A DNA stretch of 64,000 bases, taken from contig CAYZQE010000002.1 in the NCBI GenBank assembly GCA_964480635.1, positions 11,101-75,100 of the forward strand. The letters run 5' to 3'. Below, one piece after another: positions 17,305 to 63,056 of this stretch. The stretch comes from an uncultured Gammaproteobacteria bacterium (GTDB lineage: Bacteria; Pseudomonadota; Gammaproteobacteria; GCA-001735895). Numbering within the stretch: the first letter of the stretch is position 1; each line of letters opens with the position of its first letter. The position numbers and the translations under genes are program-made. The notes below the pieces were generated by a model that worked only from the letters and a program-made list of their open reading frames with translations, ran no database searches and had not been told where the DNA came from.

Positions 17305-17322
17305 AGCAAAATTTACCTTGGC

Positions 17323-18984: not shown

Positions 18985-18988
18985 AAGG

Positions 18989-19249
18989 CTATTTCTTTAC
19001 TTTATGAGTTGGCACGGGATCATATCCACCTTCATGCCAAGGGTGACAAGAGAAGATTCTCTTTATAGCTAACCAACTTCCTTTAAAGAATCCAAATGAT
19101 TCTATAGCTTCTATAGAATAATGTGAGCATGTTGGATAGTACCGACAGTTATTCGCCATATATGGGCTAATAACTATTTGATAAAATTTGATGGGTAATA
19201 TTAAGAGTTGACGCATAATTTTTAACATTGTGTCTTCACAGTTTGCCAA
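18989..19249 (-). CDS. yidD: Membrane protein insertion efficiency factor YidD
   Basis: 86 aa with conserved [10 protein letters not shown] and [12 protein letters not shown] motifs. Confidence 0.85.
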
Positions 19250-19575
19250 TTTTTTTGCATTAACTCAAAAATTTGCTGATTGGTCTGAAACATTATTTTA
19301 TGTTTCACCATAATCAGATAACTTTTATTAGGTAATTGAGATTGAGATTGACGAAAACTTTCTCTAAAAATTCTTTTCAATCTGTTGCGATCAACAGCTT
19401 TTTTAATTTGCTTTTTAGCAATAGCAAAGCCTAAACGTGGTCGCTTAGATGTTTGCTTACTGATCAATAGCGTCATCAATGAATTTCCAATTTTTAAATT
19501 AGACTTAAAAACTTGTTGAAATTCACCACCAGTAGTTAATCTACTGTGTCGCCGAAAACAAAATTGTTCGGCCAT
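19222..19575 (-). CDS. rnpA: RNase P protein component RnpA
   Basis: 117 aa, basic, with the conserved RNR-type motif ([18 protein letters not shown]). Sits in the rpmH-rnpA-yidD-yidC context. Confidence 0.85.
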
Positions 19576-19593
19576 TGTATTAGCCTGATATGC

Positions 19594-19728
19594 CTATGGA
19601 GTTAGGCGAGCTCTACCTTTTGCTCTACGTGATTTTAATACCTTGCGACCACCAGTGGTCTGAGTACGGGCTCTAAAACCATGTGTACGGGCTCTTTTAA
19701 TTTTACTAGGTTGATATGTGCGTTTCAT
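19594..19728 (-). CDS. rpmH: 50S ribosomal protein L34
   Basis: Complement translates to [44 protein letters not shown] (44 aa). Below the ORF-track size cut-off. Located immediately upstream of rnpA as in most bacteria. Confidence 0.85.
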
Positions 19729-19767
19729 GTTACTTCCAAAAGTGTCGACTTAAAAACAAGGCGCGAT

Positions 19768-19796
19768 AATATATAATTATACCCATACTTCGTCAA
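19768..19796 (-). promoter_or_regulatory. Candidate sigma-70 promoter of the rpmH operon (-35 TTGACG, 17-nt spacer, -10 TATATT on the minus strand)
   Basis: Read on the minus strand: TTGACGaagtatgggtataattaTATATT, about 40 nt upstream of the rpmH ATG. Confidence 0.35.
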
Positions 19797-19844
19797 TCTT
19801 TATTTTAACTAAGTGCTATTTATTCACTATAAGTTATATTAATT

Positions 19845-20050
19845 AAGAAATCTCTTAACATATCAATAAAATTTTAAGCGTTATCAAGCTGTCGGCAATT
19901 ACTCCTGCATTGCTCTACTAAGTTACATCCATGTGGCTTTCCTACAGGTCGCTGCCAAATTACCACCAGCGTTAGTTATCAAATCTTGTGGTATCTAGAT
20001 GACAATGATTTGGCTTAGATAAAAATTATGGACTTAATCAGAGCATCCTT
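19845..20050 (-). mobile_element. Degenerate, internally deleted copy of the TIR element (MITE-like) in the rpmH-dnaA intergenic region
   Basis: 20026-20050 is a perfect reverse complement of the 25-bp TIR AAGGATGCTCTGATTAAGTCCATAA of the copy at 54835-55145. The ~130 bp upstream aligns with the interior of that copy (CATCCATGTGGCTTYCCTACRGGTCG..TGCCAAAT...TATCTAGATGAC...TTTGGCTTAGATAAAAA), with a deletion between the internal inverted-repeat arms. The other terminus (19845-19880) is decayed (aagaaatctcttaacatatcaat vs AAGGATGCTCTGATTAAGTCCAT). Confidence 0.6.
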
Positions 20051-20097
20051 AAGCTTTTACTGTATCCTATTCTTTTATTTAATACTGAGTAATAGCT

Positions 20098-21435
20098 TTG
20101 TCTCATCCTATCTGGACCCAATGTCTTTCTTATCTTGAAGATGAATTAAGTAGCCAACAGTTCAATACTTGGATCTTACCCCTACAATTAGAATTTAATG
20201 GTAATAATTTTAAATTATTAGCCCCTAATCGCTTTATTTTAGACTGGGTAAAAAACAATAGTTTTTCTCGAATTATTGAAATTATTCAATTTTTAGATGA
20301 TAGCAAAGCAATACAAGTCACTCTTAATATTGGCACCACTCACAAAGTTGAAGATACTCAATCAAACGTACCACAAAAAAAGAAATCATTTATTTATCAA
20401 TCTGGCCTAAATGCTAATCATACTTTTAAAAGTTTTGTTGAAGGTAAATCTAACAGTATGGCTCGAGCTGCATCCATTAGAGTAAGTAGTTTAGTGGATA
20501 ACGAATATAATCCACTGTATTTATATGGTGGGGTTGGTTTAGGAAAAACGCATTTAATGCACGCTGTTGGCAATCAAATAAAAAAAGATAACCCCGATGC
20601 CGTCGTTGTTTATGTCAATTGTGAACGTTTTATTCAAGATATGGTTAAAGCTTTACAACATAATAAAATTGATGAATTTAAAAGTCATTACCGAGGGGTT
20701 GATGCATTACTCATTGATGATATTCAATTTTTAGCTGACAAAAATAGATCCCAAGAAGAGTTTTTTCACACCTTTAACTCACTGTATGAATCAAATGCAC
20801 AAATGATTATCACCTGTGATCGCTATCCGAAAGAAATTGAGGGCTTAGAAGATAGAATAATCTCTCGTTTAGGCTGGGGTTTAGCCGTCGATATAAAGCC
20901 ACCTGATTTAGAAACACGCGTTGCAATTTTATACAGTAAAGTTTCTCAATATCAAAAAAATAATACGGTACAAAGAGAAATACCCAGTGATGTTGCTTTT
21001 TTTATAGCGCAAAACTTTAAATCAAATATTAGAGATTTGGAAGGTGCTATCAAACGTTTATTAGCCCAAGCTGATTTTACTGATTCTACCATAACAATGG
21101 AATTCACTAAATTAGCGCTAAATGATTTATTATCGGTACAAACAAAAATTATCACTATTCAATACATACAAAAAACAATTTGTGATTACTATAAATTAAG
21201 GACATCAGATTTACTTTCTGCTCGACGTACCCGGTCCATCACAAGACCTCGTCAATTAGCGATGGCTTTATGTAAAGAATTTACGCGTCATAGTCTCCCT
21301 GAAATTGGTGATGCTTTTGGCGGCAGAGACCACACAACTGTTTTACATGCTTGCAGACAAATAAAAAAATTAATTTTAGAAGAACCCACTATAAAAGATG
21401 ATTATGAAAAATTGGAAAGAATTTTATCTACTTAA
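20098..21435 (+). CDS. dnaA: Chromosomal replication initiator DnaA (TTG start)
   Basis: MSHPIWTQCLSYLEDELSSQQFNTWILPLQ parallels the E. coli DnaA N-terminus. AAA+ Walker A GGVGLGKTHLMHAVGN and C-terminal DnaA-box-binding domain present. In-frame TGA at 20086 forces the TTG start at 20098. Confidence 0.9.
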   Translation: MSHPIWTQCLSYLEDELSSQQFNTWILPLQLEFNGNNFKLLAPNRFILDWVKNNSFSRIIEIIQFLDDSKAIQVTLNIGTTHKVEDTQSNVPQKKKSFIYQSGLNANHTFKSFVEGKSNSMARAASIRVSSLVDNEYNPLYLYGGVGLGKTHLMHAVGNQIKKDNPDAVVVYVNCERFIQDMVKALQHNKIDEFKSHYRGVDALLIDDIQFLADKNRSQEEFFHTFNSLYESNAQMIITCDRYPKEIEGLEDRIISRLGWGLAVDIKPPDLETRVAILYSKVSQYQKNNTVQREIPSDVAFFIAQNFKSNIRDLEGAIKRLLAQADFTDSTITMEFTKLALNDLLSVQTKIITIQYIQKTICDYYKLRTSDLLSARRTRSITRPRQLAMALCKEFTRHSLPEIGDAFGGRDHTTVLHACRQIKKLILEEPTIKDDYEKLERILST

Positions 21436-21477
21436 ATTTGATAAAATGAATAAATAATGTATTAATTGTTATTATAT

Positions 21478-21532
21478 TGTGGATAAGTAAAATGATTAAA
21501 ATAGTATTCAGTTTATACACGAGTTATCCACA
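21478..21532. promoter_or_regulatory. Pair of consensus DnaA boxes in inverted orientation (TGTGGATAA at 21478-21486, TTATCCACA at 21524-21532) in the dnaA-dnaN spacer, the second abutting a TATAAT hexamer
   Basis: Exact 9-mer matches to the R-box consensus. ccacaaTATAATg directly follows the second box, suggesting a DnaA-controlled dnaN/recF promoter. An AT-rich stretch follows (21600-21655). Confidence 0.6.
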
Positions 21533-21655
21533 ATATAATGAACAATAAATCACTAGTGTATACATTTAAAAAATCGCCTAACTTATTGAAAAGTAATAAG
21601 TTTATTGATTTACTCACAAAATAAAATTTACTAATAATAGTAATAAAGTATATAT

Positions 21656-22756
21656 ATGAATATATCTATTAATAAAGAAGACCTTCTAGTGCCTTTACAA
21701 CAAGTAATAGGCGCAATAGAAAAAAAACAAACAATGCCAATTTTAGGTAATTTATTATTTAAATCTTTAGGCAGTCAACTTCAAATTATTGGTACTGATC
21801 GTGAGCTAGAACTCATTAGTACGATTGAGCTTAATCAAGTATCTGATATTTTCACAACCATACCCGCTCGTAAATTACTGGATATTTGTAAAGCTTTACC
21901 AAATGATGCACTCATCAATCTAGAAATAAATGAAAGCAGAGCTATTTTAAAATCATCAAAAAGTCGTTTCGCCTTAAGTACATTGCCAGCTACTGATTTT
22001 CCATTATTAGATGAACTGGATTTTTTATTTAAATTTAATGTTAAACAAAATCAATTTAAAAAATTATTAGAAAAAACATCATTTGCAATGGCTCAACAAG
22101 ACGTTAGATATTATTTAAATGGCGTTATGTTAGAAATTGAAAGTAATCAATTAAAAATTGTTGCAACAGATGGTCATAGATTAGCACTTGGATCAATTAA
22201 TGGTGACTACCCTGTCGAATCAACTTTTCAGATAATTATTCCAAGAAAAGCAGTAATGGAGCTTTCACGTTTATTAACTATAGATAATGAAGAAATAACA
22301 ATTTCAGTTAGCAAAAATCATATTCGTCTTGAATTAAAAGATATTATTTTTACTAGTAAATTAATTGATGGTAAATTTCCAGATTATAATCGTGTAATAC
22401 CATTGGATTTAAATCAAGAATTAACAATAAATAAAGATACTTTGAAAGAGACGCTACAACGCATATCTATTTTGTGTAATGAAAAATATAGAGGTATTCG
22501 TTTAACGTTAGAAAATAACACATTAAACATTAAAGCTAATAACCCTCATCAAGAAGAAGCTGAGGAAGAAATATTAGTAGATTTTGACCAAACTAAAATA
22601 AACATTGGTTTTAATGTTATTTATCTAATAGATGTATTAAATGCTATAGATACAGAGGGTGTGAAAATTCATTTAAAAGATGCTAATAGTAGTTGTGTAC
22701 TAACGAATGAAAATAATGATGATTTTAAATATGTTGTTATGCCAATGAGATTATAA
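21656..22756 (+). CDS. dnaN: DNA polymerase III beta sliding clamp
   Basis: 366 aa with three-domain clamp architecture (MNISINKEDLLVPLQQVIGAIEKKQTMPILGNLL...). Conserved dnaA-dnaN-recF-gyrB order. Confidence 0.9.
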   Translation: MNISINKEDLLVPLQQVIGAIEKKQTMPILGNLLFKSLGSQLQIIGTDRELELISTIELNQVSDIFTTIPARKLLDICKALPNDALINLEINESRAILKSSKSRFALSTLPATDFPLLDELDFLFKFNVKQNQFKKLLEKTSFAMAQQDVRYYLNGVMLEIESNQLKIVATDGHRLALGSINGDYPVESTFQIIIPRKAVMELSRLLTIDNEEITISVSKNHIRLELKDIIFTSKLIDGKFPDYNRVIPLDLNQELTINKDTLKETLQRISILCNEKYRGIRLTLENNTLNIKANNPHQEEAEEEILVDFDQTKINIGFNVIYLIDVLNAIDTEGVKIHLKDANSSCVLTNENNDDFKYVVMPMRL

Positions 22757-22762
22757 AATTAT

Positions 22763-26243
<3,481 letters not shown>

Positions 26244-28299: not shown

Positions 28300-28935
28300 A
28301 TGAAAAATTTAACCGTATTGTTTTTATTATTAATTTCGTTTCAATCATTTTCTCAAGAAAGTGAAGATATTCAATATGTTACCGGAAAATTATATCTATC
28401 GTTATATCAACAAGCAGATTCAGGTAGTCAGGTTATTAAATCATTAGTGTCTGGTGATAGGCTTAATGTCATTGAAATTGCTGGACCCTATGCGAAAGTT
28501 ATTACCACAAAAGATCAACAAGGTTGGGTAAAAAAAGGTTTTATTGTTAAGTCAAAACCAGCAAGTGTTTTGTATAAAGAAGTGAATAGTGCTTATAAAA
28601 ATTTACAACAAGAAATGGAACGAAATAAACAAGAAAATAGCGCTAGCATAGACTTAAAAGAGGTCATACAACGTTTAGAAAAAGAAAATAAAAAACTCAA
28701 AGTCAGTAATGAGCTTTATTTAAGTAGACAAACATTACTGAATAAAGAGAACAACGTAGAAGAATTGGAAGATTCACACGTTATTGACTTAGAGACATTT
28801 AAACAGATTATAAATGAATATTTTATGTTTTTACTAGCCTCTTTAATTTTATTAATTTTAATTGGATTTAGAGTTGGCGAATTAAAAACTGAATCTGATG
28901 TTATTAAACACTTTGGTGGTGTTAGAGTATGGTAA
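28300..28935 (+). CDS. SH3-domain / coiled-coil / C-terminal TM protein (YgiM-like paralogue)
   Basis: Signal peptide, SH3b-like segment (VTGKLYLSLYQQADSGSQVIKSLVSGDRLNVIE...GWVKKGFI), coiled coil, C-terminal hydrophobic helix. Confidence 0.5.
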   Translation: MKNLTVLFLLLISFQSFSQESEDIQYVTGKLYLSLYQQADSGSQVIKSLVSGDRLNVIEIAGPYAKVITTKDQQGWVKKGFIVKSKPASVLYKEVNSAYKNLQQEMERNKQENSASIDLKEVIQRLEKENKKLKVSNELYLSRQTLLNKENNVEELEDSHVIDLETFKQIINEYFMFLLASLILLILIGFRVGELKTESDVIKHFGGVRVW

Positions 28936-41122: not shown

Positions 41123-42118
41123 ATGATGCCAAGCCTTCTAAAATTTAAATTCATCCAATTGTTATCTGCATTTATCTTAATGACACCGCTTCAAATCGGT
41201 ATTGCCGATTTATTACAACCCATCAGTGGGCGAGGTATTACGATTAATGAAATTTTACCCGCCGATGTATTAGCCAGAGTCGAGTTAATTAAAGAAGACC
41301 TTAATTTAATCAGACTAGAGCTGGGTAAACCCAATGTGTCAGAAGCGGATATTGATGTATTAGAAACAGCGCCTAGAGAAGTTTACTTTGTCGCCCAAGC
41401 TCTGTTTGTAAAGGCCAATCGTTTTGGATTTGAGCTTAATAAAACCTCTTTAGATGCGTTAACGCCAGTGAATGCTGCTACGGTAAAGCCATTTCATGTG
41501 TGGCAGGTTGTGAATGCGGCCTACCAACGAATTGAAGACATTAAGAAAAAATTAAACATTAAACAAGGCGGTATAGAGCGCCAACAAGCTATTGAAACAA
41601 CCCCCAATGATGTTATTCAATCATTATTAGACACCAATAAATTATTAAGCCATTTGCTCTTTACTAAGCTATCACCTGCCGATGCATATCAACAAATTAC
41701 GGCGAGTATCAATTTAACCGCACAATTACTAGCTCAGTTTGATGGTGTGAAACGTATTCCTGATGCGCCTGTTTATGAGCGACGTAAAACACCAGGTGAT
41801 GTTTATGCAAGGTTATATAATAGTTTTAGTCTCGTCAAAAGCATCGCTTCATCATCAAATTTATTAATGTTTAATTTTCAAGTCACGCATCTAAAAAAAT
41901 CTAAATCACCCAGCGATGTGTATGGTTTAGCGACCTTATTAAAGGCTGAACTTGCTTATTTTCATGCTAAGTTGCAAACCACCGAACAAGTCGCGAAAGC
42001 GTATTATCCGGGTATTAAAACACCTTCAGATGTTTTTCAACGCGTCGGAATACTAGAGCAGCAATTAAATACGTTATTAATTCAGGTGATTGATAACCCG
42101 ACTTGGTTAGAGCAGTAA
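41123..42118 (+). CDS. Secreted protein with five degenerate 'TPxDV[YF]' repeats, first gene of the HK-CheR-CheB-GGDEF cluster
   Basis: Signal peptide. Repeats ETAPREVYF, TTPNDVIQ, KTPGDVYA, KSPSDVYG, KTPSDVFQ are each followed by an amphipathic helix-like stretch. Stop lies 3 bp before the kinase start. Confidence 0.45.
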   Translation: MMPSLLKFKFIQLLSAFILMTPLQIGIADLLQPISGRGITINEILPADVLARVELIKEDLNLIRLELGKPNVSEADIDVLETAPREVYFVAQALFVKANRFGFELNKTSLDALTPVNAATVKPFHVWQVVNAAYQRIEDIKKKLNIKQGGIERQQAIETTPNDVIQSLLDTNKLLSHLLFTKLSPADAYQQITASINLTAQLLAQFDGVKRIPDAPVYERRKTPGDVYARLYNSFSLVKSIASSSNLLMFNFQVTHLKKSKSPSDVYGLATLLKAELAYFHAKLQTTEQVAKAYYPGIKTPSDVFQRVGILEQQLNTLLIQVIDNPTWLEQ

Positions 42119-42121
42119 CTC

Positions 42122-45100
42122 ATGTCGGTCGTTAATAATAGGGAGAATAAAGCGGAAGAATTAAAGCGCGGTTTATATGCCTCTTATTTTTCTTTAACAA
42201 TCGTTGGCCTAAGTTTATTGGTGGTTGGTTTAGTGACCAATATTTGGATCAGTAATCAGGCATTAGAAGTTATTAATGTCAGCTCACCCAAAGTGGCATT
42301 ATTAGAAAAAATAAACACATCTTTAGAAACATCAAGAGCAGATTTAAACGCATGGATAGGTGGCGGCGAATTACAATTTAAAATAAACCGTAAAAAAGCT
42401 TGGCAACAAGACATATATCTCGCGTTAGATAAACTTAAAGCATTAAATGACGATAACCATGAGAACCTTAAAAAATTAGAACAAAAGCTACGCAACGTAG
42501 AAATGTGGCAATGGAAAATTGAAGACGTTGCTCAAACTCAAGGTAATTTCCCATCGCAATATTTATTGGATAGCCAAACAAAAAAATTAATTAAAAGGAC
42601 AGTAAATGCCACAACAGCACTGATAGAAATAGAGCTATTAGGTCTTATATCTAGCCTTCAAAAACATGACGTTAATGTGTTAATTGAGTTTCGAGCAAAC
42701 CTTTTTGAGTCATTATCGCATTTAACCGACTATGTGAGGAATGACGTACATTCTTCAAGGTTTGAATTTAATCGTTCAATGGCAAAAGCAGAGATAAATT
42801 TTAAAGCGCTGTTGCAAATTAATAAAATGATCGAGGTTGATCAATTAGAACAGTTAATTATTATTAACGAAAATTTTAAAGCCTATCAATCGCAAACGTC
42901 ACAGATATTAACCATTAGAGAAGGTAATAATTGGAATATTGCTACCACTTGGGTTGAGCAAGAGCTGAATCCAAAAAAAGAGCAGGTTGAAAAGACACTA
43001 ATAGCCTTACTTAATGAAGAAAGAAAACGCCTACAAAGTGATGCCGATAGCATAAAAAAATTGGGCACTATAGTGCCCTTTATCATGTTTGGATTATTGT
43101 TTTTAATGGCTTTTGTGGCCTTTTACCTGGCCCGAAAAAGTACACATCGTTTTGTCGCGCCAGTGGTGAACTTAGAAATTCAAGATCAATTAAAATCAGA
43201 CGTTGCTGTCTTAAATAGTAATATGCTGGGAGTTAATAATATTAAAGAGTTATGCCAAAACGCTATCAAATATTTGGCTGAACAAACCCAAGCCGTAGGC
43301 GGTTCACTGTTTGTAGAGCAGGATAATCTTTTAAGACTAAAAGGCGCTTATGCGGTATCTAACCGTCAGCTTTTAGCTCATAGTGGTATTGAGTTGGGTG
43401 AAGGTTTATTAGGCCAAGCATATATCAATAACGACATTAAATTTATTAAACCAGAGCCTAACGATGACTTTGTTATTCAGTCGTCGCTGATAGAGGCAAC
43501 CCCAAAGCAGTTGATGATTGCACCTATTGAATTTCAAGGTAAGGTGACGGCGGTTATAGAGCTGGCTTCATTACATGACTTTAGTGATTATGAAATCACC
43601 TTTATTAAGCAATGTTTGATTGATATTGGCGCATCATTGAATGCTGTACAGCAAGGTGAGCTAATAAGAGAGTCTCTCGCTAAGTCACAGGCACAGTCGG
43701 AAGAACTGGTGAGCCAACAAGAAGAGCTTCGAGTTACTAATGAAGAGCTAGAAAACCAAAAAGAAGAACTAAGAGTGACCAATGAAGAGCTTTTGGTACG
43801 GGGTGATGCCATTCAAGATAAATCAGATTTATTAGAGCAAGCCAATAAAGATCTTTCTGAAAAATCTCAAAATTTAGAGCTTCAAGCAAATGTTTTAAAA
43901 AAGTCAGAAAAAGAGCTGGCAGACAAGGCCGCGCTGTTAGAAGAAGCGAGCCGTTATAAATCAGAATTTTTAGCCAATATGTCACACGAGCTACGAACGC
44001 CGCTTAATAGCTTATTAATTTTAGCTAAAATGTTAGCAGACAATGATGAAGAGAATTTAAATGAAGACCAAGTAGAGTCGGCAAGCGTCATTTACGATAG
44101 CGGCACTCACTTGTTAAATTTAATCAATGATATTTTAGACCTCTCTAAAATTGAAGCAGGCCGAATGGATGTGGTTAAGGAAACCTTTTTTATTGCTGAA
44201 TTAGCAAAAAGCATGGAGGCTCGGTTTACCCATATGGCAAAGGTAAAGGGTATTTTATTTAATGTGACTGGGTTAGATATTTCATTATTAAGCTTAATAA
44301 CTGATGGAGTGAAGCTCCAACAAATACTCACTAACTTAATTGGCAATGCCCTTAAGTTTACGTCGGAAGGTTCAGTCACATTAGATTTCTCAGTTATTAA
44401 AAATAATGAACATGATCAACAAATAGCGATTGCAGTGATTGATACTGGCATTGGCATAGAAGAAACAAAGCAAGCGGCTATTTTTGAAGCCTTTCAGCAA
44501 GAAGATGGTTCAATTAACCGTAATTTTGGTGGCACGGGTTTAGGCTTATCTATTTCAATGGCCTATTCAAAATTATTAGGTGGGCACGTTCAGCTTAAAT
44601 CTAAAAAAGGCATCGGTTCAACATTTACTTTAATGCTACCTTTGAACGAGCAACCTATTGAAGACGTTGTTATCCAAGAGCCAAAACCTCTCAAGCTTGT
44701 TGAGGGCGTTAAGAACAACCCTGAAATCGCCGAAGAAAAAAAACAATCTTGGGTCATCTCCCCTCCTCCATTTACCGATGATCGAGAACGGTTAAAGACA
44801 GAACTGCCCTTGTTGTTAGTGGTTGAAGATGACCCTAAATTTTCTCGTATTTTGTATAAAGAAGCACAAAAGCAAGGTTATCAATGTCTGGTTGCACCTG
44901 ATGCAGAAAGTGGGTTGATATTGCTAGATAAACATAAAGTTATGGGTATCTTGCTTGACTTAAGTTTACCGCGAATGGATGGCAAAGAATTTTTAAAACG
45001 AGTAATGGATAATAATGAGCTTGAAGATATTCCCGTACATATTATATCGGCTTTGGGTCGTTCAGGAGATGAGCTTGAACAGGGTGCAGTGGGCTATTTT

Positions 45101-45988
45101 ACAAAACCAGTCAATCAAAGCCAAATTGCAATAGCGTTAGGCCGGCTAATGAACACTCACTGTAGTTCAATAGCTCAAGTACTTTTAATCGAAGGTGATG
45201 AGGCATCTCGATTGGAAATGATGACGTTATTAATGAACGAAAATATAAAAATAACAGAAGCTTGTCATGCGGCTGAGGCCACAGAGTATTTAAAGACAAA
45301 AGAATTTAATAGCATTATTTTAGGTTTGAACTTGCCAGATCAAAGCGGATTTGAATGGCTAGATGAGGCTGCAAATAATGATGACTTCATCTTACCTCCA
45401 GTGATTATTTATTCGGGTCGCAATTTAAGCCTCGAAGAAGAAAGTCATTTAAAACACTATACCGAAAGCATTATTATAAAATCCTCTCGTTCTGCTGAAC
45501 GTCTATTGGATGAAGTGTCGTTATTTTTAAACAGCGTTAAAAGAACGAAACAAAAAACGCCTAACATTCAGAAAAAAATAAATAAAAGTCAAAGCGATGG
45601 TAAAGGAGAAACGCCAGAACTAAAAAATAAGAGGGTGCTTGCCGTTGATGATGACATGCGTAATACCTTTGCTTTATCTAAAGTATTACGCAACAGAGGT
45701 ATGGTTGTTGAAATGGCCAGTAGCGGAAAGTTAGCGTTGCAAAAACTCAATGACCAAGAACTATTTGATATCGTACTTATGGATATTATGATGCCAGACA
45801 TGGATGGTTATGAAACCATGCAGGCCATTAGAAAAATAGCACGGTTTAAAAACTTACCCATTATTGCTGTTACAGCAAAAGCAATGAAAGGCGATAAAGA
45901 AAAATGTTTAGAAGCAGGTGCCAATGATTATTTATCAAAACCTATTGATATCGAAAAGCTGCAAACTACCATGCTGACTTGGGTTTAG
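42122..45988 (+). CDS. Chemoreceptor-like hybrid sensor histidine kinase (2 TM + ~270-aa helical periplasmic domain, GAF, Glu/Gln-rich coiled coil, HisKA, HATPase_c, REC, pseudo-REC, REC)
   Basis: TM1 ~aa 20-42, TM2 ~aa 316-338. H-box SHELRTPLNS (~nt 43983). G-boxes (GGTGLGLSI). Receivers start at LLLVVEDDP (~44815), QVLLIEGDEA (~45178, phospho-Asp position is Gly in IILGLNLPD) and KRVLAVDDD (~45632, canonical LMDIMMPDMDG). Confidence 0.85.
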   Translation: MSVVNNRENKAEELKRGLYASYFSLTIVGLSLLVVGLVTNIWISNQALEVINVSSPKVALLEKINTSLETSRADLNAWIGGGELQFKINRKKAWQQDIYLALDKLKALNDDNHENLKKLEQKLRNVEMWQWKIEDVAQTQGNFPSQYLLDSQTKKLIKRTVNATTALIEIELLGLISSLQKHDVNVLIEFRANLFESLSHLTDYVRNDVHSSRFEFNRSMAKAEINFKALLQINKMIEVDQLEQLIIINENFKAYQSQTSQILTIREGNNWNIATTWVEQELNPKKEQVEKTLIALLNEERKRLQSDADSIKKLGTIVPFIMFGLLFLMAFVAFYLARKSTHRFVAPVVNLEIQDQLKSDVAVLNSNMLGVNNIKELCQNAIKYLAEQTQAVGGSLFVEQDNLLRLKGAYAVSNRQLLAHSGIELGEGLLGQAYINNDIKFIKPEPNDDFVIQSSLIEATPKQLMIAPIEFQGKVTAVIELASLHDFSDYEITFIKQCLIDIGASLNAVQQGELIRESLAKSQAQSEELVSQQEELRVTNEELENQKEELRVTNEELLVRGDAIQDKSDLLEQANKDLSEKSQNLELQANVLKKSEKELADKAALLEEASRYKSEFLANMSHELRTPLNSLLILAKMLADNDEENLNEDQVESASVIYDSGTHLLNLINDILDLSKIEAGRMDVVKETFFIAELAKSMEARFTHMAKVKGILFNVTGLDISLLSLITDGVKLQQILTNLIGNALKFTSEGSVTLDFSVIKNNEHDQQIAIAVIDTGIGIEETKQAAIFEAFQQEDGSINRNFGGTGLGLSISMAYSKLLGGHVQLKSKKGIGSTFTLMLPLNEQPIEDVVIQEPKPLKLVEGVKNNPEIAEEKKQSWVISPPPFTDDRERLKTELPLLLVVEDDPKFSRILYKEAQKQGYQCLVAPDAESGLILLDKHKVMGILLDLSLPRMDGKEFLKRVMDNNELEDIPVHIISALGRSGDELEQGAVGYFTKPVNQSQIAIALGRLMNTHCSSIAQVLLIEGDEASRLEMMTLLMNENIKITEACHAAEATEYLKTKEFNSIILGLNLPDQSGFEWLDEAANNDDFILPPVIIYSGRNLSLEEESHLKHYTESIIIKSSRSAERLLDEVSLFLNSVKRTKQKTPNIQKKINKSQSDGKGETPELKNKRVLAVDDDMRNTFALSKVLRNRGMVVEMASSGKLALQKLNDQELFDIVLMDIMMPDMDGYETMQAIRKIARFKNLPIIAVTAKAMKGDKEKCLEAGANDYLSKPIDIEKLQTTMLTWV
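43721..43792 (+). repeat. In-frame 42-nt (14-aa) tandem repeat encoding EELRVTNEELENQK / EELRVTNEELLVRG within the kinase coiled coil
   Basis: Two units encode an identical 10-aa core with many synonymous differences (cttcgagttact vs ctaagagtgacc). The identity is therefore conserved at the protein level, not a recent DNA duplication. Confidence 0.6.
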
Positions 45989-45996
45989 GCATTTAG

Positions 45997-46857
45997 ATGG
46001 CAAGAATAAGCATTCAACATGCATTGGATGAACTAAATTTGACCCAAGTTGAAGATATAGAGTTATCACTTTTTATAAAGGCGGTTGAAGCCCGTTTTGG
46101 TTATGATTTTAAAAACTATCAAAAGGCATCGTTAAAGCGTCGAGTGCAAGCATTAGTGGTTAGCCAAGAATTAAACGTCATTAGTGAATTACTGCCTAAG
46201 ATTTTATATGAAGAGGGTTTTCTAGAAGAGATTATTGCCAAGATATCAGTTGGGGTGACCGAATTATTTCGTGACCCATGGAGTTATGATGCCATTAAAA
46301 ACCATGTGTTTGCATACTTAGAGTCATACCCTAGCCTTAAAATTTGGCATGCGGGTTGTTCCACAGGTGAAGAAGCATTCTCTTTAGCTATTCTTTTACA
46401 AGAAGCAGAATTAATGAATAAGACCACGGTTTACGCCACTGATTTTAATGAAGCAACATTAAACATTGCCAAAAGTGGTGTATTGAATACAAAAATATCT
46501 AAAGAAGATGTTACAAACTATCAACAAGCGGGAGGTAAACATTCTTTAGTGGATTACTTTACATCTGCTTATGGTCATTCAAAACTTGAGCAAGGCCTAT
46601 TAAACAACATTAATTTTAAACTGCACAATTTGGTACATGATGAGGTTTTTTGTCAGGCAAATGTAGTGATGTGTCGAAACGTGACCATTTACTTTAATCG
46701 TAAGCTTCAAGCTAAGGTACTTCAGTTATTATCAGATTCGGTATGTCGAGGTGGGTTTTTAATTTTAGGGCCAAAAGAATCCATCATAGCCACGCCCATT
46801 GAAAAGCTTTTTAAAGTAATTGATCAAAAAGCAAAAATATTTCAAAAAATAGTCTAG
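45997..46857 (+). CDS. cheR: Chemotaxis protein methyltransferase CheR-like
   Basis: N-terminal helical subdomain and SAM-dependent MTase fold (IWHAGCSTGEEAFSLAILL, VVMCRNVTIYFN). Confidence 0.8.
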   Translation: MARISIQHALDELNLTQVEDIELSLFIKAVEARFGYDFKNYQKASLKRRVQALVVSQELNVISELLPKILYEEGFLEEIIAKISVGVTELFRDPWSYDAIKNHVFAYLESYPSLKIWHAGCSTGEEAFSLAILLQEAELMNKTTVYATDFNEATLNIAKSGVLNTKISKEDVTNYQQAGGKHSLVDYFTSAYGHSKLEQGLLNNINFKLHNLVHDEVFCQANVVMCRNVTIYFNRKLQAKVLQLLSDSVCRGGFLILGPKESIIATPIEKLFKVIDQKAKIFQKIV

Positions 46858-46858
46858 C

Positions 46859-47419
46859 ATGCATATTGTTTTAATTGGCGGTTCAAGCGGTAGTTTAAAG
46901 CCGGTTCGTTTATTATTACGAAACCTTAATGGTTCTAATTATGTGGTCATTATCATTTTGCACTTACCCTCACAAATTGATTTACCATTAGTTGAATTAT
47001 TAGCAGTAGATACTAAACTCCCTGTTAAAGAAGCAATAGATAAATCGTTAATAGATGTTATGAACGTATACGTTGCAGCAGGTGGCTATCATCTTTATAT
47101 AGAAGATGATCATAGTTTTGCTTTATCTTTAGATGAAAAAGTTAACTATAGCCGACCTTCAATTGACGTTTTATTTTCATCAGCTGCCGATGTTTACGGC
47201 CAATCTTGTATTGGCATTTTGTTGTCTGGAGCTAACAAAGACGGTGCAGAAGGACTAAAAAGAATGAAGCAACTAGGCGGAATGACGATAGCACAGCTAC
47301 CAACTGAAGCCGAGGTCAGTGAGATGCCAAAATCTGCGATTGACACAGGTAGTATCGATTTAATTGCAACAGTGGACGACATAGCTATAAAAATTAATCA
47401 ACTGATGAATAAAAGATGA
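46859..47419 (+). CDS. cheB: Protein-glutamate methylesterase CheB, catalytic domain only (no receiver)
   Basis: 186 aa. Carries GGSSGS (Ser), HLP (His) and SGANKDGAEG (Asp) catalytic elements. No N-terminal REC domain. Confidence 0.75.
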   Translation: MHIVLIGGSSGSLKPVRLLLRNLNGSNYVVIIILHLPSQIDLPLVELLAVDTKLPVKEAIDKSLIDVMNVYVAAGGYHLYIEDDHSFALSLDEKVNYSRPSIDVLFSSAADVYGQSCIGILLSGANKDGAEGLKRMKQLGGMTIAQLPTEAEVSEMPKSAIDTGSIDLIATVDDIAIKINQLMNKR

Positions 47420-47430
47420 CGCCACGATAA

Positions 47431-48417
47431 ATGAAAAATTTAACACCAAAAATACTCATTGTTGATGATATTAAAGCGAATTTAATCGCATTAAATGCGC
47501 TGTTAAAAAGGATGGATGTTGAAGTAATTCAAGCCAGTTCGGGTAACGATGCATTAGGCCTAGTGCTAGAACATGACTTTGCTTTATTTTTGTTTGATGT
47601 GCAAATGCCTGAAATGGATGGCTATGAATTAGCCGAAATTCTAATGCATGAAGATTCTACCAAAGATATTCCTGTTATTTTTATCACAGCAGCCATGAAG
47701 GATGAATTAAACAGGATTAAGGGTTATGAGCACGGTGCGATTGATTACATAGAAAAGCCGATTAATGATGCGATTTTAAAAGCAAAAGTGAAAATACTTT
47801 TAAATATGTGGCAACAACGTCAACAGTTAAATATTTTACTTGATGACATTGCTGAAAAAAACATTGCCCTACAAACCGAAGTGGCAGAACGAAAAAAAGT
47901 AGAGCAGCGCCTCAATCATATGGCGAGCTATGATTCACTGACTGAGTTGCCCAATCGCCATCAACTCGATAAAGAAGCAACGAAAATAATTTCTACAGCA
48001 AAACGTTACGATCATCGTGTTGCCTTTATGTTTTTAGATTTAGATGGCTTTAAAAAAGTAAATGATAACAATGGGCACGACATAGGCGATGCTGTTTTGG
48101 TCGAGTCAGCTTTGCGCATGCAAAAAGCAGTACGTGATATTGATGTAGTCGCTCGCTTTGGCGGCGATGAGTTTATAATTGTATTGCCTGACTGCCATAC
48201 TAATGCTGATGTCAGCATCATTGCCAAACGTATCATTGATCACATTAATCAGCCGTTAGAATCGGTTAATATTGTCGAAAAATTAGGCGTGAGTATTGGC
48301 ATAGCGATTTATTCTGAGGATGGAATGACAAAAGAAGAGTTGTTGACTTTAGCCGATAAAGCCATGTATGAAGCCAAAAAATCAGGAAAAAATCAATTTA
48401 AATTTACTTCTGAGTAA
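47431..48417 (+). CDS. Response regulator receiver-GGDEF diguanylate cyclase
   Basis: REC (ILIVDDIKANL...FLFDVQMPEMDG), coiled-coil linker, intact GGDEF (RFGGDEFIIV). Confidence 0.85.
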   Translation: MKNLTPKILIVDDIKANLIALNALLKRMDVEVIQASSGNDALGLVLEHDFALFLFDVQMPEMDGYELAEILMHEDSTKDIPVIFITAAMKDELNRIKGYEHGAIDYIEKPINDAILKAKVKILLNMWQQRQQLNILLDDIAEKNIALQTEVAERKKVEQRLNHMASYDSLTELPNRHQLDKEATKIISTAKRYDHRVAFMFLDLDGFKKVNDNNGHDIGDAVLVESALRMQKAVRDIDVVARFGGDEFIIVLPDCHTNADVSIIAKRIIDHINQPLESVNIVEKLGVSIGIAIYSEDGMTKEELLTLADKAMYEAKKSGKNQFKFTSE

Positions 48418-57921: not shown

Positions 57922-58596
57922 TTAAAACTCACCCCAAGAATCATTCTTTTTCCATTTAATGCGCGTGACAATGATGCCAATTAAAAAAGCGAGTAAAGAC
58001 ACGCCAGAACCTCTAATAAACCAATCCATAGCAGTGCTGTCTTTATAGCTATTATTTTCGGCTAATAACTGCGCTTTATCTGTTTCAAGTTGAAAGATAA
58101 GAGTTTGTTGGTCTTTGTTTTGTTCAATAATCGCAATCGTATTTCTTGTTGCTGATTTTAGTTGCTCTAATTCTTCGGCAGTATCTATTAGTTGAGTAGT
58201 TAATGATTTTGCTTGAGAGTCCGTGTTGCTATTGATTTGATTTAATTCTTTTAATTCAGACCTTAATGCCTTAATGGTTTCATTTTGTTTTTTACTTTTA
58301 ATGTCAAGTGTTGAAAACTGTTCGCGCCCTGATGGCAAGGTGTCGAGAAAACGAGTCAGTACATAACCTTGTTTACCCTTTGAAGTTTCAACCAGAGAGT
58401 ATTTAGTGGCGTCATCGTGCTCAATAAACTTAACGGCTTCGCCACTTTTTAGCATGGTTAAAATACTGTTTGTTGTGCTGGTGCCAGTTCGTAAAGTTAC
58501 TTTAAATTCATCGGTAATATAGCGCGTCTCTGCCCAGCTAAGAGAAGATGATGATAATGCAGCTAAGATGATTATTTTTAAAATTGAGAATTTCAT
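57922..58596 (-). CDS. SH3 domain protein, YgiM/TIGR04211-like (signal peptide, SH3b, coiled coil, C-terminal TM)
   Basis: MKFSILKIIILAALSSSSLSWA signal, SH3b-like YITDEFKVTLRTGTS...GYVLTRFL, long coiled coil, C-terminal GVSLLAFLIGIIVTRIKW. Confidence 0.6.
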   Translation of the reverse strand: MKFSILKIIILAALSSSSLSWAETRYITDEFKVTLRTGTSTTNSILTMLKSGEAVKFIEHDDATKYSLVETSKGKQGYVLTRFLDTLPSGREQFSTLDIKSKKQNETIKALRSELKELNQINSNTDSQAKSLTTQLIDTAEELEQLKSATRNTIAIIEQNKDQQTLIFQLETDKAQLLAENNSYKDSTAMDWFIRGSGVSLLAFLIGIIVTRIKWKKNDSWGEF

Positions 58597-59694: not shown

Positions 59695-59834
59695 CAGGCT
59701 ATCAACGTAGCTAGAGCTTTTTTAAAAGCTCGTATAATTTGTTTTATTGTAAAAACCACTAGGGTTTACTGTGACCACTGGTTATTGAAAATGCTCTGCT
59801 ATACTTGCCATGTCTCTTCACTAAAACAATTAAA

Positions 59835-60704
59835 ATGACGCCATTAGAGAAATTATTATCGCAATCAACAGAGCTGCCTTCGCTTCCTGAAATTTATATT
59901 AGAGTGTCAGAACTGTTGGAATCAGATCATTCTTCGGCCAATGAAATTGGTGAGGCAGTTCAAACCGACCCTTCATTAACATCAAAAATCTTAAAAATGC
60001 TTAATAGTGCTTACTATGGCTTACCTAGTGAGGTGACGTCAATATCGCAAGCAGTTTCATTATTAGGGCGTCAGCAGTTAAAGCAACTGTTAATGGGCTC
60101 AGTGTTAGCGGGTTTATTTAAAGATATGAATCACGCGAGCTTTTCAATGCGTGAATTTTGGCAACATAGCATTAAAACAGCCATCATTGCTAGGCATTTG
60201 GCGCTGCAAAATGCCAGTGTTATTGATCATGACGCCTTTTTTACAGCAGGCTTATTGCATGATATCGGTCGTTTAGTGATTGTCAGTGAATTGCCTGACT
60301 CACTGAGCGATGTAGAGCAACTGATGATTGATGCTGGTATAGATACCGTGATGGCTGAAAATAAAATTTTGGGGTTCACGCATATGGACGTTAGTCGAGA
60401 AATCATGAAGAACTGGAAATTGCCAAGTATGTTGGTTCAATGTGCACTAAAGCATCATGACACTGAGCATGAAGGCCCCTTTGCTATAGATACTTGCATC
60501 GTTTATGTCGCCAATATGCTCAGTGAAAAGGAGCTACCTGAAGAAGAAAGTGACGTCGCAGTGATTTTAGAAGGTATTGAAAATTGGCAACAAACCAAAT
60601 GTACACTCGATCAGATTACAGCGGCATGCCAATTGGCACAAGAACAGGCACATGACGTTATGGAATCATTAGGCATGGTTGATATAGAGATAAGCGAAGA
60701 ATAA
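59835..60704 (+). CDS. HDOD-domain signalling protein
   Basis: LPSLPEIYIRVSELLE N-terminus typical of HDOD proteins. Degenerate HD fold (GLLHDIGRLVI). Start chosen at MTPLEKLL (59835), whereas the ORF track allows 59805. Confidence 0.65.
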   Translation: MTPLEKLLSQSTELPSLPEIYIRVSELLESDHSSANEIGEAVQTDPSLTSKILKMLNSAYYGLPSEVTSISQAVSLLGRQQLKQLLMGSVLAGLFKDMNHASFSMREFWQHSIKTAIIARHLALQNASVIDHDAFFTAGLLHDIGRLVIVSELPDSLSDVEQLMIDAGIDTVMAENKILGFTHMDVSREIMKNWKLPSMLVQCALKHHDTEHEGPFAIDTCIVYVANMLSEKELPEEESDVAVILEGIENWQQTKCTLDQITAACQLAQEQAHDVMESLGMVDIEISEE

Positions 60705-60988: not shown

Positions 60989-61468
60989 ATGCTAAAAAAT
61001 AAACATCTTGAATTGGGAATGTCAATAATTGAGGCAATGATTGCTTTAGTGATTATATCGGTTGGATTATTGGGTATTGCGGCGTTACAAATTGTTGCAT
61101 TACAACAAAGCGCAAGTAGTCAATGGCATAGTAAAGCGGTGTGGTACAGCTATGAAATGAGTGATCGTATTTTGGCAAATGAAACACAATTTGCAAATTA
61201 TTCAGGTATTGATACGTTAAATGATTATTCACAAGACTGCCAAAGTAATGCGTGTTCAACCGCAGGGTTAAGAATTTCGGATGCTGCTGACTGGAAGCAG
61301 CGGGTATCAGATTTGCCCAGTGGGCAGGGCATTATAACTTCTTCTGCAGCAGCTCAGTTAACGGTGACTGTCATGTGGGACGATGAAGGTACTGGGGCTT
61401 CTGGCACTGGTTGTTCGGCCAATCATGATGTCGATCTTACTTGCTATAGTGTGACGATAGTACAGTGA
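60989..61468 (+). CDS. pilV: Type IV pilus minor pilin PilV
   Basis: Prepilin leader ...HLELG|MSIIEAMIALVIISVGLLGIAALQ is collinear with the P. aeruginosa PilV N-terminus. Confidence 0.75.
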   Translation: MLKNKHLELGMSIIEAMIALVIISVGLLGIAALQIVALQQSASSQWHSKAVWYSYEMSDRILANETQFANYSGIDTLNDYSQDCQSNACSTAGLRISDAADWKQRVSDLPSGQGIITSSAAAQLTVTVMWDDEGTGASGTGCSANHDVDLTCYSVTIVQ

Positions 61469-62523
61469 ATATAAAGCAAATTAGCGCTCTGAAATTAAAA
61501 CGACAAAGAGGCATTTCTTTAGTTGAAATTATGGTGGCCATGGTCATTAGTATTTTTTTACTAGGTGGTGTTATTCAAGTTTATCTTGCCAATAAATCAT
61601 CCTATCGATTTACTGATGCAACCACCCGAATTCAAGAAAATGCACGATTTTCTTTAGATACCATTGCTTCAGACCTTCGAATGGCAAGTTATTGGGGTTG
61701 CGCGCAATTTGACGCTAGCAATAATGATCATTTACGTAATAACTTAAATACGGCGTCAGGGCAGTACAACGTAAACCTACATGATTTTATCGGTTTAGAT
61801 GCGATTTCTATGACGGCTAATGATGGCTTAAATGGCTCTGATAGCATCACAGTTATTGGCAGTAAGCCAGGGCAAAATGTTATTAGAGCGCCTTACATGT
61901 CGGACACTGATGATAACATTGAAGTTTTAAATACAAGTGCAATAGAGGCTAATGATTTTGTTATCATTTCAAACTGTTTTGGTGCCGATATCTTCGAAGT
62001 CAGTTCTATCACTGGATCAGCAGTTGGCGGACAAAGTGTTATCTTTCATTCAACACAGGCCCAAACTGGAACACCCGGCAATACTAATTTAGCAGGTTGT
62101 ACAGCAGTAGGGACGAATCAGTGCTTATCACAAACTTATGGTTCGACAGCGGCAATTTCTATTTTGCAAACGATTACCTATAGTATTCAAGCAGGCGCTA
62201 GTGGAGAGCCTGCCTTATGGCGTTCTTTGAATGGCGTTGATGACGAGTTGATAGAAGGTGTTGAGCAGATGCAAATATTATTTGGCTTAGATACTGATGA
62301 TGATGGGACACCCAATCAATATTTAGCAGATGCCAATGCAATAGCGGCGAATTCAGAACAAATTAGTGCGGTACGAATATTTTTGGTAATGCGCTCAAAC
62401 CTAAATAATATTACCGACAATGCTCAGGTTTATAATTTAAATGGTACAGATGTGACGGCAACTGATAATCGATTGCGTCAAGTTTTTTCTATTACTATAG
62501 CGTTAAGAAACAGGTTGAGATAA
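61465..62523 (+). CDS. pilW: Type IV pilus assembly protein PilW
   Basis: Prepilin-type N-terminus QRGISLVEIMVAMVISIFLLGGV. Size and context match PilW. Overlaps pilV by 4 nt. Confidence 0.75.
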   Translation: MNIKQISALKLKRQRGISLVEIMVAMVISIFLLGGVIQVYLANKSSYRFTDATTRIQENARFSLDTIASDLRMASYWGCAQFDASNNDHLRNNLNTASGQYNVNLHDFIGLDAISMTANDGLNGSDSITVIGSKPGQNVIRAPYMSDTDDNIEVLNTSAIEANDFVIISNCFGADIFEVSSITGSAVGGQSVIFHSTQAQTGTPGNTNLAGCTAVGTNQCLSQTYGSTAAISILQTITYSIQAGASGEPALWRSLNGVDDELIEGVEQMQILFGLDTDDDGTPNQYLADANAIAANSEQISAVRIFLVMRSNLNNITDNAQVYNLNGTDVTATDNRLRQVFSITIALRNRLR

Positions 62524-63056
62524 TGAATTTACAAACTAATAATAAACGCCAAATAGGCGCTGTGCTGCTTGTTAGCATGGTTATTTTAGTCGCCTTAACC
62601 ATGTTAGGCGTCACATCAATGAAAAGCTCCTTATCAGAATTAACTATGGCGGGTAATTTACGTGAATCAGTCTTAACTTTTCAAGCGGCTGAAGTGGGTT
62701 TAAAAATAGCGGAAGGAATTATAGAAGATAGTGTTTCTACTAATATGTTTAATGGCGCGACAACAAGTTTACTAAATGTATCGACTAATGACCCCGATTA
62801 TTTGGATGAAACATCTTGGGACAATGCGACCAATGCGAATATCGCTTTAGAAAACATATCAACTAGCCCTAAATATATTATTCGTTATTTAGGCCCAAGA
62901 CCTATTGATCCAAAAATTAAGGGGCTGAATGTTGGTGGTGGCTATGGGCAGTATCGGCTCAAAGAGCTAGAAAATTTTCGCGTGACTTCGCGTGGAACAG
63001 GACAAACAGGTAATTTCTTTAGAGTGCTTCAATCTTATTATGCAAAGGAGTACTAA
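62523..63056 (+). CDS. pilX: Type IV pilus assembly protein PilX
   Basis: PilX N-terminal domain (RQIGAVLLVSMVILVALTMLGVTSM...LTFQAAEVGL). Confidence 0.7.
   Translation: MNLQTNNKRQIGAVLLVSMVILVALTMLGVTSMKSSLSELTMAGNLRESVLTFQAAEVGLKIAEGIIEDSVSTNMFNGATTSLLNVSTNDPDYLDETSWDNATNANIALENISTSPKYIIRYLGPRPIDPKIKGLNVGGGYGQYRLKELENFRVTSRGTGQTGNFFRVLQSYYAKEY

Follow-up and report, generated by a model that had tools for sequence, protein, structure and literature searches.

A CfcA/BmsA-type operon with an orphan CheR/CheB pair and a candidate methyl-accepting coiled coil in a hybrid kinase with a predicted c-di-GMP output in an uncultured gammaproteobacterium

The 64,000-nucleotide stretch of contig CAYZQE010000002.1 analysed here, referred to as the window, comes from an uncultured gammaproteobacterium and carries a cluster of five genes in which an orphan CheR/CheB pair stands between a hybrid histidine kinase and a diguanylate cyclase. 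The locus is a variant of the widespread CfcA/BmsA-type cluster, and the control of cyclic di-GMP (c-di-GMP) by a hybrid kinase with an orphan CheR/CheB pair has genetic precedent there. The reading favoured here, at a probability of roughly 0.55, is that the cluster is a sensory operon of this type in which CheR and CheB tune the kinase through a coiled coil of Glu-Glu-Leu (EE-L) heptads, with c-di-GMP as the output. What is new at this locus is that the input is not CHASE3 and comes with a helper protein, and that the presumed output cyclase is encoded in cis. The five open reading frames (ORFs) all lie on the plus strand and encode a secreted helical-repeat protein of 331 aa (gene1, 41123-42118), a hybrid sensor histidine kinase of 1288 aa (42122-45988), a CheR-type protein-glutamate O-methyltransferase of 286 aa (45997-46857), a receiver-less CheB methylesterase/deamidase of 186 aa (46859-47419) and a diguanylate cyclase of 328 aa with receiver (REC) and GGDEF domains (47431-48417). 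An earlier reading made from the sequence alone (the sequence-only reading) had described five co-directional genes with spacers of 1-11 bp and these products. Its coordinates proved exact, and every domain called in the kinase, CheR, CheB and cyclase exceeded its Pfam gathering score, including the CheR, CheB_methylest, HisKA and GAF domains that it had proposed to check with hidden Markov models. The spacers measure 3, 8, 1 and 11 bp; promoter and terminator scans of the cluster performed no better than shuffles and were uninformative, so it is from spacing that an operon is inferred.

The best described system of this type is cfcABCDE of Pseudomonas putida, which starts with cfcA, the gene for a CHASE3/GAF hybrid kinase with two transmembrane (TM) segments and three receivers. 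The products of cfcB and cfcC are CheR3 and CheB3, neither of which functions in chemotaxis. The cyclase CfcR is governed by CfcA, and its activity needs both CfcA His496 and CfcR Asp65. In the bmsA-type cluster of P. alkylphenolica the gene order is kinase-CheR-CheB-hybrid kinase. The window cluster resembles these in its two-TM hybrid kinase with a cytoplasmic GAF domain and three C-terminal receivers, in having cheR and cheB immediately downstream on the same strand, and in having a REC-containing diguanylate cyclase as output, a connection that is genetic for CfcA and inferred for the window kinase. The latter is 37-42% identical to CHASE3/GAF kinases of CfcA/BmsA-type clusters; this homology is to unnamed kinases in equivalent clusters, with CfcA itself compared by its published description. 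Three features set the window cluster apart. Its kinase has a periplasmic domain that is not CHASE3 and lacks HAMP, whereas relatives have CHASE3 and, in most cases, HAMP; a dedicated gene for a secreted helical-repeat protein precedes the kinase; and its cyclase is a REC-GGDEF protein without EAL, encoded within the operon at the position of a REC-histidine kinase, whereas cfcR of P. putida is unlinked.

Gene neighbourhoods of four relatives and of a sample of 80 genome loci were annotated by phmmer, and the counts given below for family kinases and their clusters refer to these loci. CheR is encoded immediately downstream of 25 of the 55 family kinases that have at least 1.5 kb of downstream sequence, and CheB is also present in 16. 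The CheR-bearing loci belong to at least eight phyla (Bacteroidota, Gamma- and Betaproteobacteria, Cyanobacteria, Nitrospirota, Bacillota, Gemmatimonadota, Eremiobacterota and Eisenbacteria), and the impression given by the sequence-only reading that the arrangement is unusual does not survive this comparison: it is of the Pseudomonas cfcABCDE/bmsA type and widely distributed. CheR-free members come mainly from Actinomycetota, Acidobacteriota and Alphaproteobacteria, and in these the downstream gene encodes a receiver protein or a further kinase. Neither CheR nor CheB occurs at any of the 24 loci that match a generic HisKA segment alone. The kinase-cheR-cheB order recurs at loci L002, L003, L006-L010, L035 and others, and the usual further cluster member is a REC-histidine-kinase gene, in whose place the window and L035 have REC-GGDEF. 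L035, from a Nevskiaceae metagenome-assembled genome, encodes a CHASE3-HAMP-GAF kinase, CheR, a 188-aa CheB and REC-GGDEF in the same order. Profiling of the arrangement across genomes, another suggestion of the sequence-only reading, therefore has a two-sided outcome: kinase-CheR-CheB is widespread, and the identical kinase-CheR-CheB-REC/GGDEF order occurs at one further locus of the sample, L035.

The window kinase consists of TM1, a periplasmic domain of ~264 aa, TM2, GAF, a long coiled coil, HisKA, HATPase, REC1, a pseudo-REC2 and REC3. Its GAF domain spans residues 373-504 (43238-43633; Pfam GAF_2 and GAF above gathering score, GAF_2 E-value 6e-7), and the kinase core (43958-44647) is made up of HisKA at residues 613-680 (1.5e-20) and HATPase_c at 728-842 (7e-26), followed by three Response_reg stretches (3e-56). 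The phospho-acceptor is His622 (nt 43985-43987), within the H-box MSHELRTP (residues 620-627), and the G boxes read DTGIGI and GGTGLGL. Aligned with 16 relatives, the kinase shows 31-42% identity over its C-terminal ~72%; the nearest are proteins of ~1200 aa with the architecture CHASE3/4HB/NIT-HAMP-GAF-HisKA-HATPase-3xREC from Bacteroidota, Cyanobacteria, Proteobacteria and Firmicutes. Between GAF and HisKA lies the candidate methyl-accepting segment, residues 524-559 (43691-43798), proposed from its sequence, conservation, shuffles and comparison with relatives. It is composed of five consecutive heptads, AQSEELV, SQQEELR, VTNEELE, NQKEELR and VTNEELL, each with a Glu-Glu-Leu core, and the Glu pairs fall at residues 527/528, 534/535, 541/542, 548/549 and 555/556. 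The segment holds five [EQ]E[LM] motifs, as compared to a mean of 0.96 in shuffled sequences (P = 0.0007). Conservation across the family alignment is at least 90% at E528, N540 and L543.

The geometry of the linker is heptad-exact across the family. In all 53 of the family kinases (L003-L063) with both anchors locatable, the distance from the end of GAF to the phospho-accepting His equals 5 modulo 7, over eleven length classes of 89-159 residues, indicating that the linker is a continuous coiled coil that changes by whole heptads, as in the cytoplasmic domains of chemoreceptors. Where CheR is adjacent, the linker is longer by ~2.5 heptads (mean 137 vs 119.5 residues, p = 1.5e-5), and these kinases carry 3.84 [EQ]E[LM] motifs each, as against 0.97 in CheR-free members (p = 8e-8), the figure for unrelated hybrid kinases being 0.52. 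The mean rises to 4.4 where CheR and CheB are both present and is 2.8 in CheR-only clusters. Within the CheR-linked kinases, 63 of 70 EE[LM] motifs occupy a single register relative to the His, which places the Glu pairs along one face of the helix. The motif also follows CheR among kinases with other sensors. L086, the closest full-length relative, with the order gene1-kinase-CheR-CheB, has five AEELQAQ heptads that match the canonical consensus for methylation in methyl-accepting chemotaxis proteins (MCPs) too; the PAS-type kinase L087, which is accompanied by CheR, shows three EE-L heptads and one QEL; and L002, a CHASE3 kinase without GAF that is accompanied by CheR/CheB, has EE-L heptads. 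L088, a HAMP-type relative without CheR/CheB, has none. As judged from these sequences, the EE-L motif tracks CheR rather than the type of sensor domain. As a separate observation, the Actinomycetota kinases (Streptomyces, Nonomuraea and Actinomadura; loci L015-L017, L021-L023, L028, L030, L033, L037, L038, L060 and others) are a distinct sub-architecture, without CheR/CheB, in which short linkers of 117-124 residues are found and the next gene encodes a receiver-domain protein of ~200-300 aa.

A similar run of heptads is found in the CheB-CheR fusion kinases (P0057, P0061 and P0092), which have the domain order CheB_methylest-CheR_N-CheR-PAS-HisKA-HATPase-REC and in which the CheR domain is directly followed by five to six [ST]xNEEL heptads. 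Both systems couple CheB and CheR to a HisKA kinase in the absence of an MCP, and both contain successive heptads built on an N-E-E-L core. They differ in that each fusion kinase is a single cytoplasmic polypeptide with the heptads following CheR, whereas the window has three ORFs with their own stop codons and its heptads lie between GAF and DHp of a membrane kinase. There is also a likeness to the methylation helices of MCPs: in both, the coiled coil varies by whole heptads and Glu/Gln pairs recur seven residues apart on one face. The MCP consensus itself is fitted by L086 and by one window site, most sites reading x-N/Q-E-E-L. Unlike in MCPs, the window coiled coil has no MCPsignal domain, hairpin or CheA/CheW interface and leads straight into DHp. 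From these comparisons the Glu-rich coiled coil of the kinase is the best candidate substrate of CheR and CheB, on support that is real but indirect. The sequence-only reading had called it the only plausible substrate; as a candidate it gains from the linker lengths and the EE[LM] heptads, and it loses its exclusive standing to the receiver domains considered below.

Several points weigh against the proposed substrate and pathway. CheR-linked kinases show no enrichment of the canonical MCP consensus, [ASTG]xx[EQ][EQ]xx[ASTG] (0.84 vs 0.57, p = 0.19), for which reason no MCP-type sites are claimed, and the sole match to it in the window is AQSEELVS. The number of EE[LM] motifs is just 0-2 in three kinases of the HAMP-array type that have CheR but not CheB. 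The motif and linker statistics take related sequences as independent, and many of the CheR-negative kinases are from Streptomyces and its relatives. A protein of 1748 aa from the eukprot set (P0042), considered as a kinase-CheR-CheB fusion, was rejected: it contains a GldC-like gliding-motility domain, a CHASE3-GAF kinase and truncated pieces of CheR and CheB, and most likely results from the merging of neighbouring bacterial genes into one gene model on contaminant Bacteroidota DNA, an example of misleading database 'fusions'. The kinase-to-cyclase route is a presumed one, no HPt having been found in the window. The search for che genes covered the 64-kb window, out of a contig of 81 kb, and an MCP or CheA may be encoded elsewhere in the genome. 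The literature searched contained no report of a histidine kinase methylated by CheR, nor anything relevant on the NEEL motif, CheB-CheR fusions or histidine-kinase methylation. Finally, Salmonella CheR methylates the response regulator PhoP, at acidic pairs in the PhoP receiver, which makes receiver domains a credible alternative target. The statement of the sequence-only reading that in canonical chemotaxis CheR and CheB act only on MCP coiled coils is therefore not strictly true.

The PhoP precedent bears directly on the kinase, which has three receivers of its own (44813-45967). Their acceptor positions, taken from the alignment of 16 relatives and a motif search together with Pfam, are Asp946 in REC1, Gly1068 in REC2 and Asp1221 in REC3 (residues 1172-1282), with approximate boundaries for REC1 and REC2. 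Gly1068 lies in the sequence IILGLNLPD (residues 1065-1073, nt 45314-45340), at a position occupied by Asp in nearly all aligned relatives and by Glu in one, so that just two of the kinase receivers look phosphorylatable; REC2 is, on this alignment, probably a pseudo-receiver particular to the lineage of the window kinase. The phosphorelay through three receivers drawn in the sequence-only reading is accordingly overstated: the three REC domains are there, but REC2 is degenerate and the cluster lacks an HPt domain, so that a relay is not literally assembled in it. The kinase's own receivers are probably phosphate sinks or regulatory modules. CheR and CheB could instead be directed at a receiver, either in the kinase, degenerate REC2 included, or in the cyclase, with the EE-L heptads acting as a structural signalling helix. 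The receiver that lacks its acceptor Asp and the lack of MCP consensus enrichment in the coiled coil are both compatible with such a target, yet the three receivers are retained, along with RVWL at the C-terminus, in family members that lack CheR, and CheR-linked kinases differ from the others in how many EE[LM] heptads they carry and in how long the linker is. The NEEL heptads that adjoin CheR in the fusion kinases point the same way, and a receiver target is considered unlikely, if still the most serious competitor. The pentapeptide RVWL[YF] at the kinase C-terminus was also examined as a docking site for CheR; it was found in 25/25 CheR-linked kinases but also in 21/27 CheR-free ones, and is a family trait rather than a CheR-specific one.

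The two modifying enzymes themselves appear to be intact. CheR matches Pfam CheR_N (7e-7) and CheR (1e-34) and contains the motifs ELFRD (residues 89-93), GCSTGEE (120-126), ATDFN (147-151) and CRNVTIYF (226-233), from which it is apparently catalytically competent. Its best relative of solved structure is Bacillus subtilis CheR (5FTW, E-value 3e-26), and it is 39-44% identical to CheRs from kinase-linked clusters. CheB has CheB_methylest as its sole Pfam domain (residues 4-178 of 186, 5e-47) and aligns with the CheB catalytic domains 7ESG, 6YMZ, 1A2O and 1CHD at E-values of 1e-22 to 1e-25. The triad motifs are kept, with Ser in GGSSGS (residues 7-12), His35 in LHLP and Asp128 in NKDGA, the roles being assigned by eye from conserved motifs in these alignments. 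Canonical CheB carries an N-terminal receiver that is phosphorylated by CheA; the window CheB is catalytic domain throughout. The receiver is likewise missing from all 16/16 CheBs of the related clusters, and the 150 nearest representatives of the window CheB in a full-library search are mostly stand-alone proteins of 185-215 aa, indicating that receiver-less CheBs form a large family and that this locus is not exceptional in having one. In E. coli, the opposite preferences of CheR and CheB for receptor conformations suffice for adaptation, and constant, unregulated demethylation is therefore not the sole prediction for a CheB without a receiver. The sequence-only reading had predicted just that; lack of a receiver is the rule in this family and, as selectivity for substrate conformation can supply feedback, does not by itself preclude adaptation.

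It might be argued that CheR and CheB are evolutionary leftovers with no current substrate, and that the operon is a plain two-component system of hybrid kinase and cyclase. About half of the family kinases work without adjacent CheR/CheB, and cfcA alone complemented the cfcA phenotype in P. putida. Set against this, the catalytic and S-adenosylmethionine-binding motifs of both enzymes are intact, and the genes are full-length, tightly packed ORFs whose products retain 39-44% identity across distant lineages, which implies purifying selection; this explanation is very improbable.

A service to chemoreceptors encoded elsewhere, as part of a dispersed chemotaxis pathway or a Wsp-like one, would reduce the operon position to co-expression. 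No Pfam match to MCPsignal, CheW, H-kinase_dim or Hpt was obtained in the ~48 ORFs of at least 100 aa in the whole 64-kb window, and phmmer searches of the window seeded with E. coli Tsr and CheW gave no match, while an MCP was detected in the control locus. The absence of MCP, CheA and CheW in or beside the cluster, asserted by the sequence-only reading, is thereby confirmed for the window. The limited extent of this census leaves room for remote chemoreceptors, CheR and CheB are genuine family members by Pfam, and the type IV pilus genes nearby make motility-related signalling plausible. Other observations argue otherwise: the adjacency to the kinase is kept in at least eight phyla, with no match to MCP or CheW within 10 kb at any CheR-bearing locus; the orthologous CheR/CheB pair in Pseudomonas has no chemotaxis role; and CheA cannot control a CheB without a receiver. 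Furthermore, CheR scores 68 bits against the NCBIfam chemotaxis-CheR equivalog, whose cutoff is 435, and CheB too falls far under its chemotaxis equivalog cutoff. Remote chemoreceptors are on balance an improbable destination for the two enzymes, less so than loss of function and more so than a receiver target. The Wsp system (WspA-F and WspR) does resemble the window cluster in having CheR/CheB homologues in an operon with a REC-GGDEF output and in controlling c-di-GMP rather than motility. Wsp includes an MCP (WspA), two CheW proteins, a CheA-type kinase and a CheB (WspF) with a receiver, none of which the window cluster has, and the window kinase differs in being a HisKA-type transmembrane sensor.

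The cyclase is the presumed output response regulator, as judged from its domains and motifs. It matches Pfam REC (2.5e-23) and GGDEF (1.9e-48), and all of the hallmarks of WspR/PleD-like regulators are present in it, namely an acceptor Asp (Asp56), an RxxD I-site (RDID, residues 235-238) and the GGDEF active site (244-248). Its REC domain is 42-47% identical to those of the REC-kinase proteins that stand at the same position in other clusters, and the protein as a whole shares 42% identity over 321 aa with its REC-GGDEF counterpart in the Nevskiaceae cluster L035. The part of the sequence-only reading that placed the locus in a two-component pathway with c-di-GMP as its output, and outside chemotaxis, agrees with these results.

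Under the favoured reading, in which CheR and CheB tune the kinase, gene1 and the periplasmic domain of the kinase would together sense a periplasmic cue, as their conserved adjacency suggests. The signal would cross the membrane, pass the GAF domain and travel down the rigid, heptad-exact coiled coil to His622 in DHp, a path whose geometry is drawn from comparison of the family. The kinase may then phosphorylate Asp56 of the cyclase and so promote c-di-GMP synthesis, as suggested by operon position and the precedent of CfcA and CfcR; with HPt lacking, phosphate would probably pass directly from His to Asp. In the least certain step, CheR would methylate, and CheB demethylate and possibly deamidate, the Glu pairs of the five EE-L heptads (residues 527-556). 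Neutralisation of charge on the EE face would alter helix packing and with it the gain or adaptation of the kinase, as in chemoreceptors. The wider proposal, which is given even odds, is that the EE-L block is a portable methyl-accepting module, a whole-heptad insert between a sensor (GAF, PAS or CHASE3-HAMP) and DHp that is served by a dedicated CheR and a receiver-less CheB.

The input side of the kinase differs from that of the known systems. Kyte-Doolittle windows place TM1 at residues 17-45, the periplasmic region at 46-309 and TM2 at 310-339 (together 42170-43138), in agreement with the two TM segments and ~270-aa periplasmic domain of the sequence-only reading. Its description of that domain as chemoreceptor-like finds no backing: 4HB_MCP_1 was hit at a non-significant E-value of 0.42, and no Pfam match to HAMP or CHASE3 was obtained in the kinase even at E-values up to 10. 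A single-sequence AlphaFold2 model of the domain had a predicted local distance difference test score (pLDDT) of 45.5 and provided no usable fold. The gene1 product has a signal-peptide-like N-terminus with a hydrophobic segment at residues 10-31, followed by eight helical repeats, each N-capped by P-x-D-V-[YF], and its family numbers at least 113 members, all unannotated and ~330 aa long. Six homologues were examined, of which three are encoded directly upstream of a hybrid kinase, one before a Ser/Thr kinase, one before a PilZ protein and one alone. The kinases that follow gene1 homologues have periplasmic domains clearly homologous to that of the window kinase in two cases (L086 and L087) and weakly matching it in the third (L088). 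An obligate partnership of gene1 with the kinase is ruled out by the three of six homologues that lack an adjoining hybrid kinase. Adjacency suggests that gene1 acts as a co-sensor in the periplasm, paired with signalling proteins of the membrane, and here it is probably the periplasmic partner of the kinase's sensor domain. It would represent an uncharacterised, structurally novel family of periplasmic proteins that pair with membrane kinases.

Pfam assigns the neighbours of the cluster as a B12/radical-SAM gene on the upstream side and mqo and maeB on the downstream side. All proteins of the cluster and its surroundings that were compared are singletons at 90% identity, and the best named GyrB relatives, from gammaproteobacterial metagenome-assembled genomes, reach ~72%. 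The window covers a replication-origin region, with mnmE-yidC-rnpA on the minus strand and dnaA-dnaN-recF-gyrB on the plus strand (15958-26243) and a change in the sign of the GC skew at ~20-22 kb, placing the cluster ~20 kb from the chromosomal origin of a low-GC gammaproteobacterium. GC content falls to 0.255 at 22001-24000, in the 3' end of dnaN and in recF, and is ~0.36 elsewhere. A second c-di-GMP gene, for a HAMP-GGDEF-EAL protein of 787 aa, is located at 2008-4371, directly preceded by a gene for a phosphonate-binding-type periplasmic solute-binding protein (1126-1971) with which it could form another sensor pair. Some 11-15 kb downstream of the cluster are genes for an HDOD protein (59805-60704) and the type IV minor pilins PilW (61465-62523) and PilX (62523-63056), and the HDOD and pilus genes could be targets of c-di-GMP. 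Two SH3_3 proteins, of 211 aa (28300-28935, plus strand) and 224 aa (57922-58596, minus strand), have the domain at residues 33-82/84 in both and are apparent paralogues.

Taken alone, the locus is a modest result, one more member of a widespread cluster with swapped input and output modules. Its interest lies in the CheR/CheB pairs that accompany CfcA-type kinases, which were shown not to serve chemotaxis and for whose role the literature searched offered no explanation. The comparison made here yields a precise prediction: methylation at five Glu pairs that line one face of a heptad-exact coiled coil leading to the phospho-accepting His. Should this hold, adaptation by methylation would reach beyond chemoreceptor arrays to ordinary two-component kinases in control of biofilm signalling. 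Were the EE-L block indeed a portable methyl-accepting module, reversible methylation of glutamate, together with sensory adaptation or memory, would operate beyond MCP/CheA arrays, in classical two-component systems of at least eight phyla and in lineages without known chemotaxis, with the window operon as a compact example tied directly to c-di-GMP synthesis.

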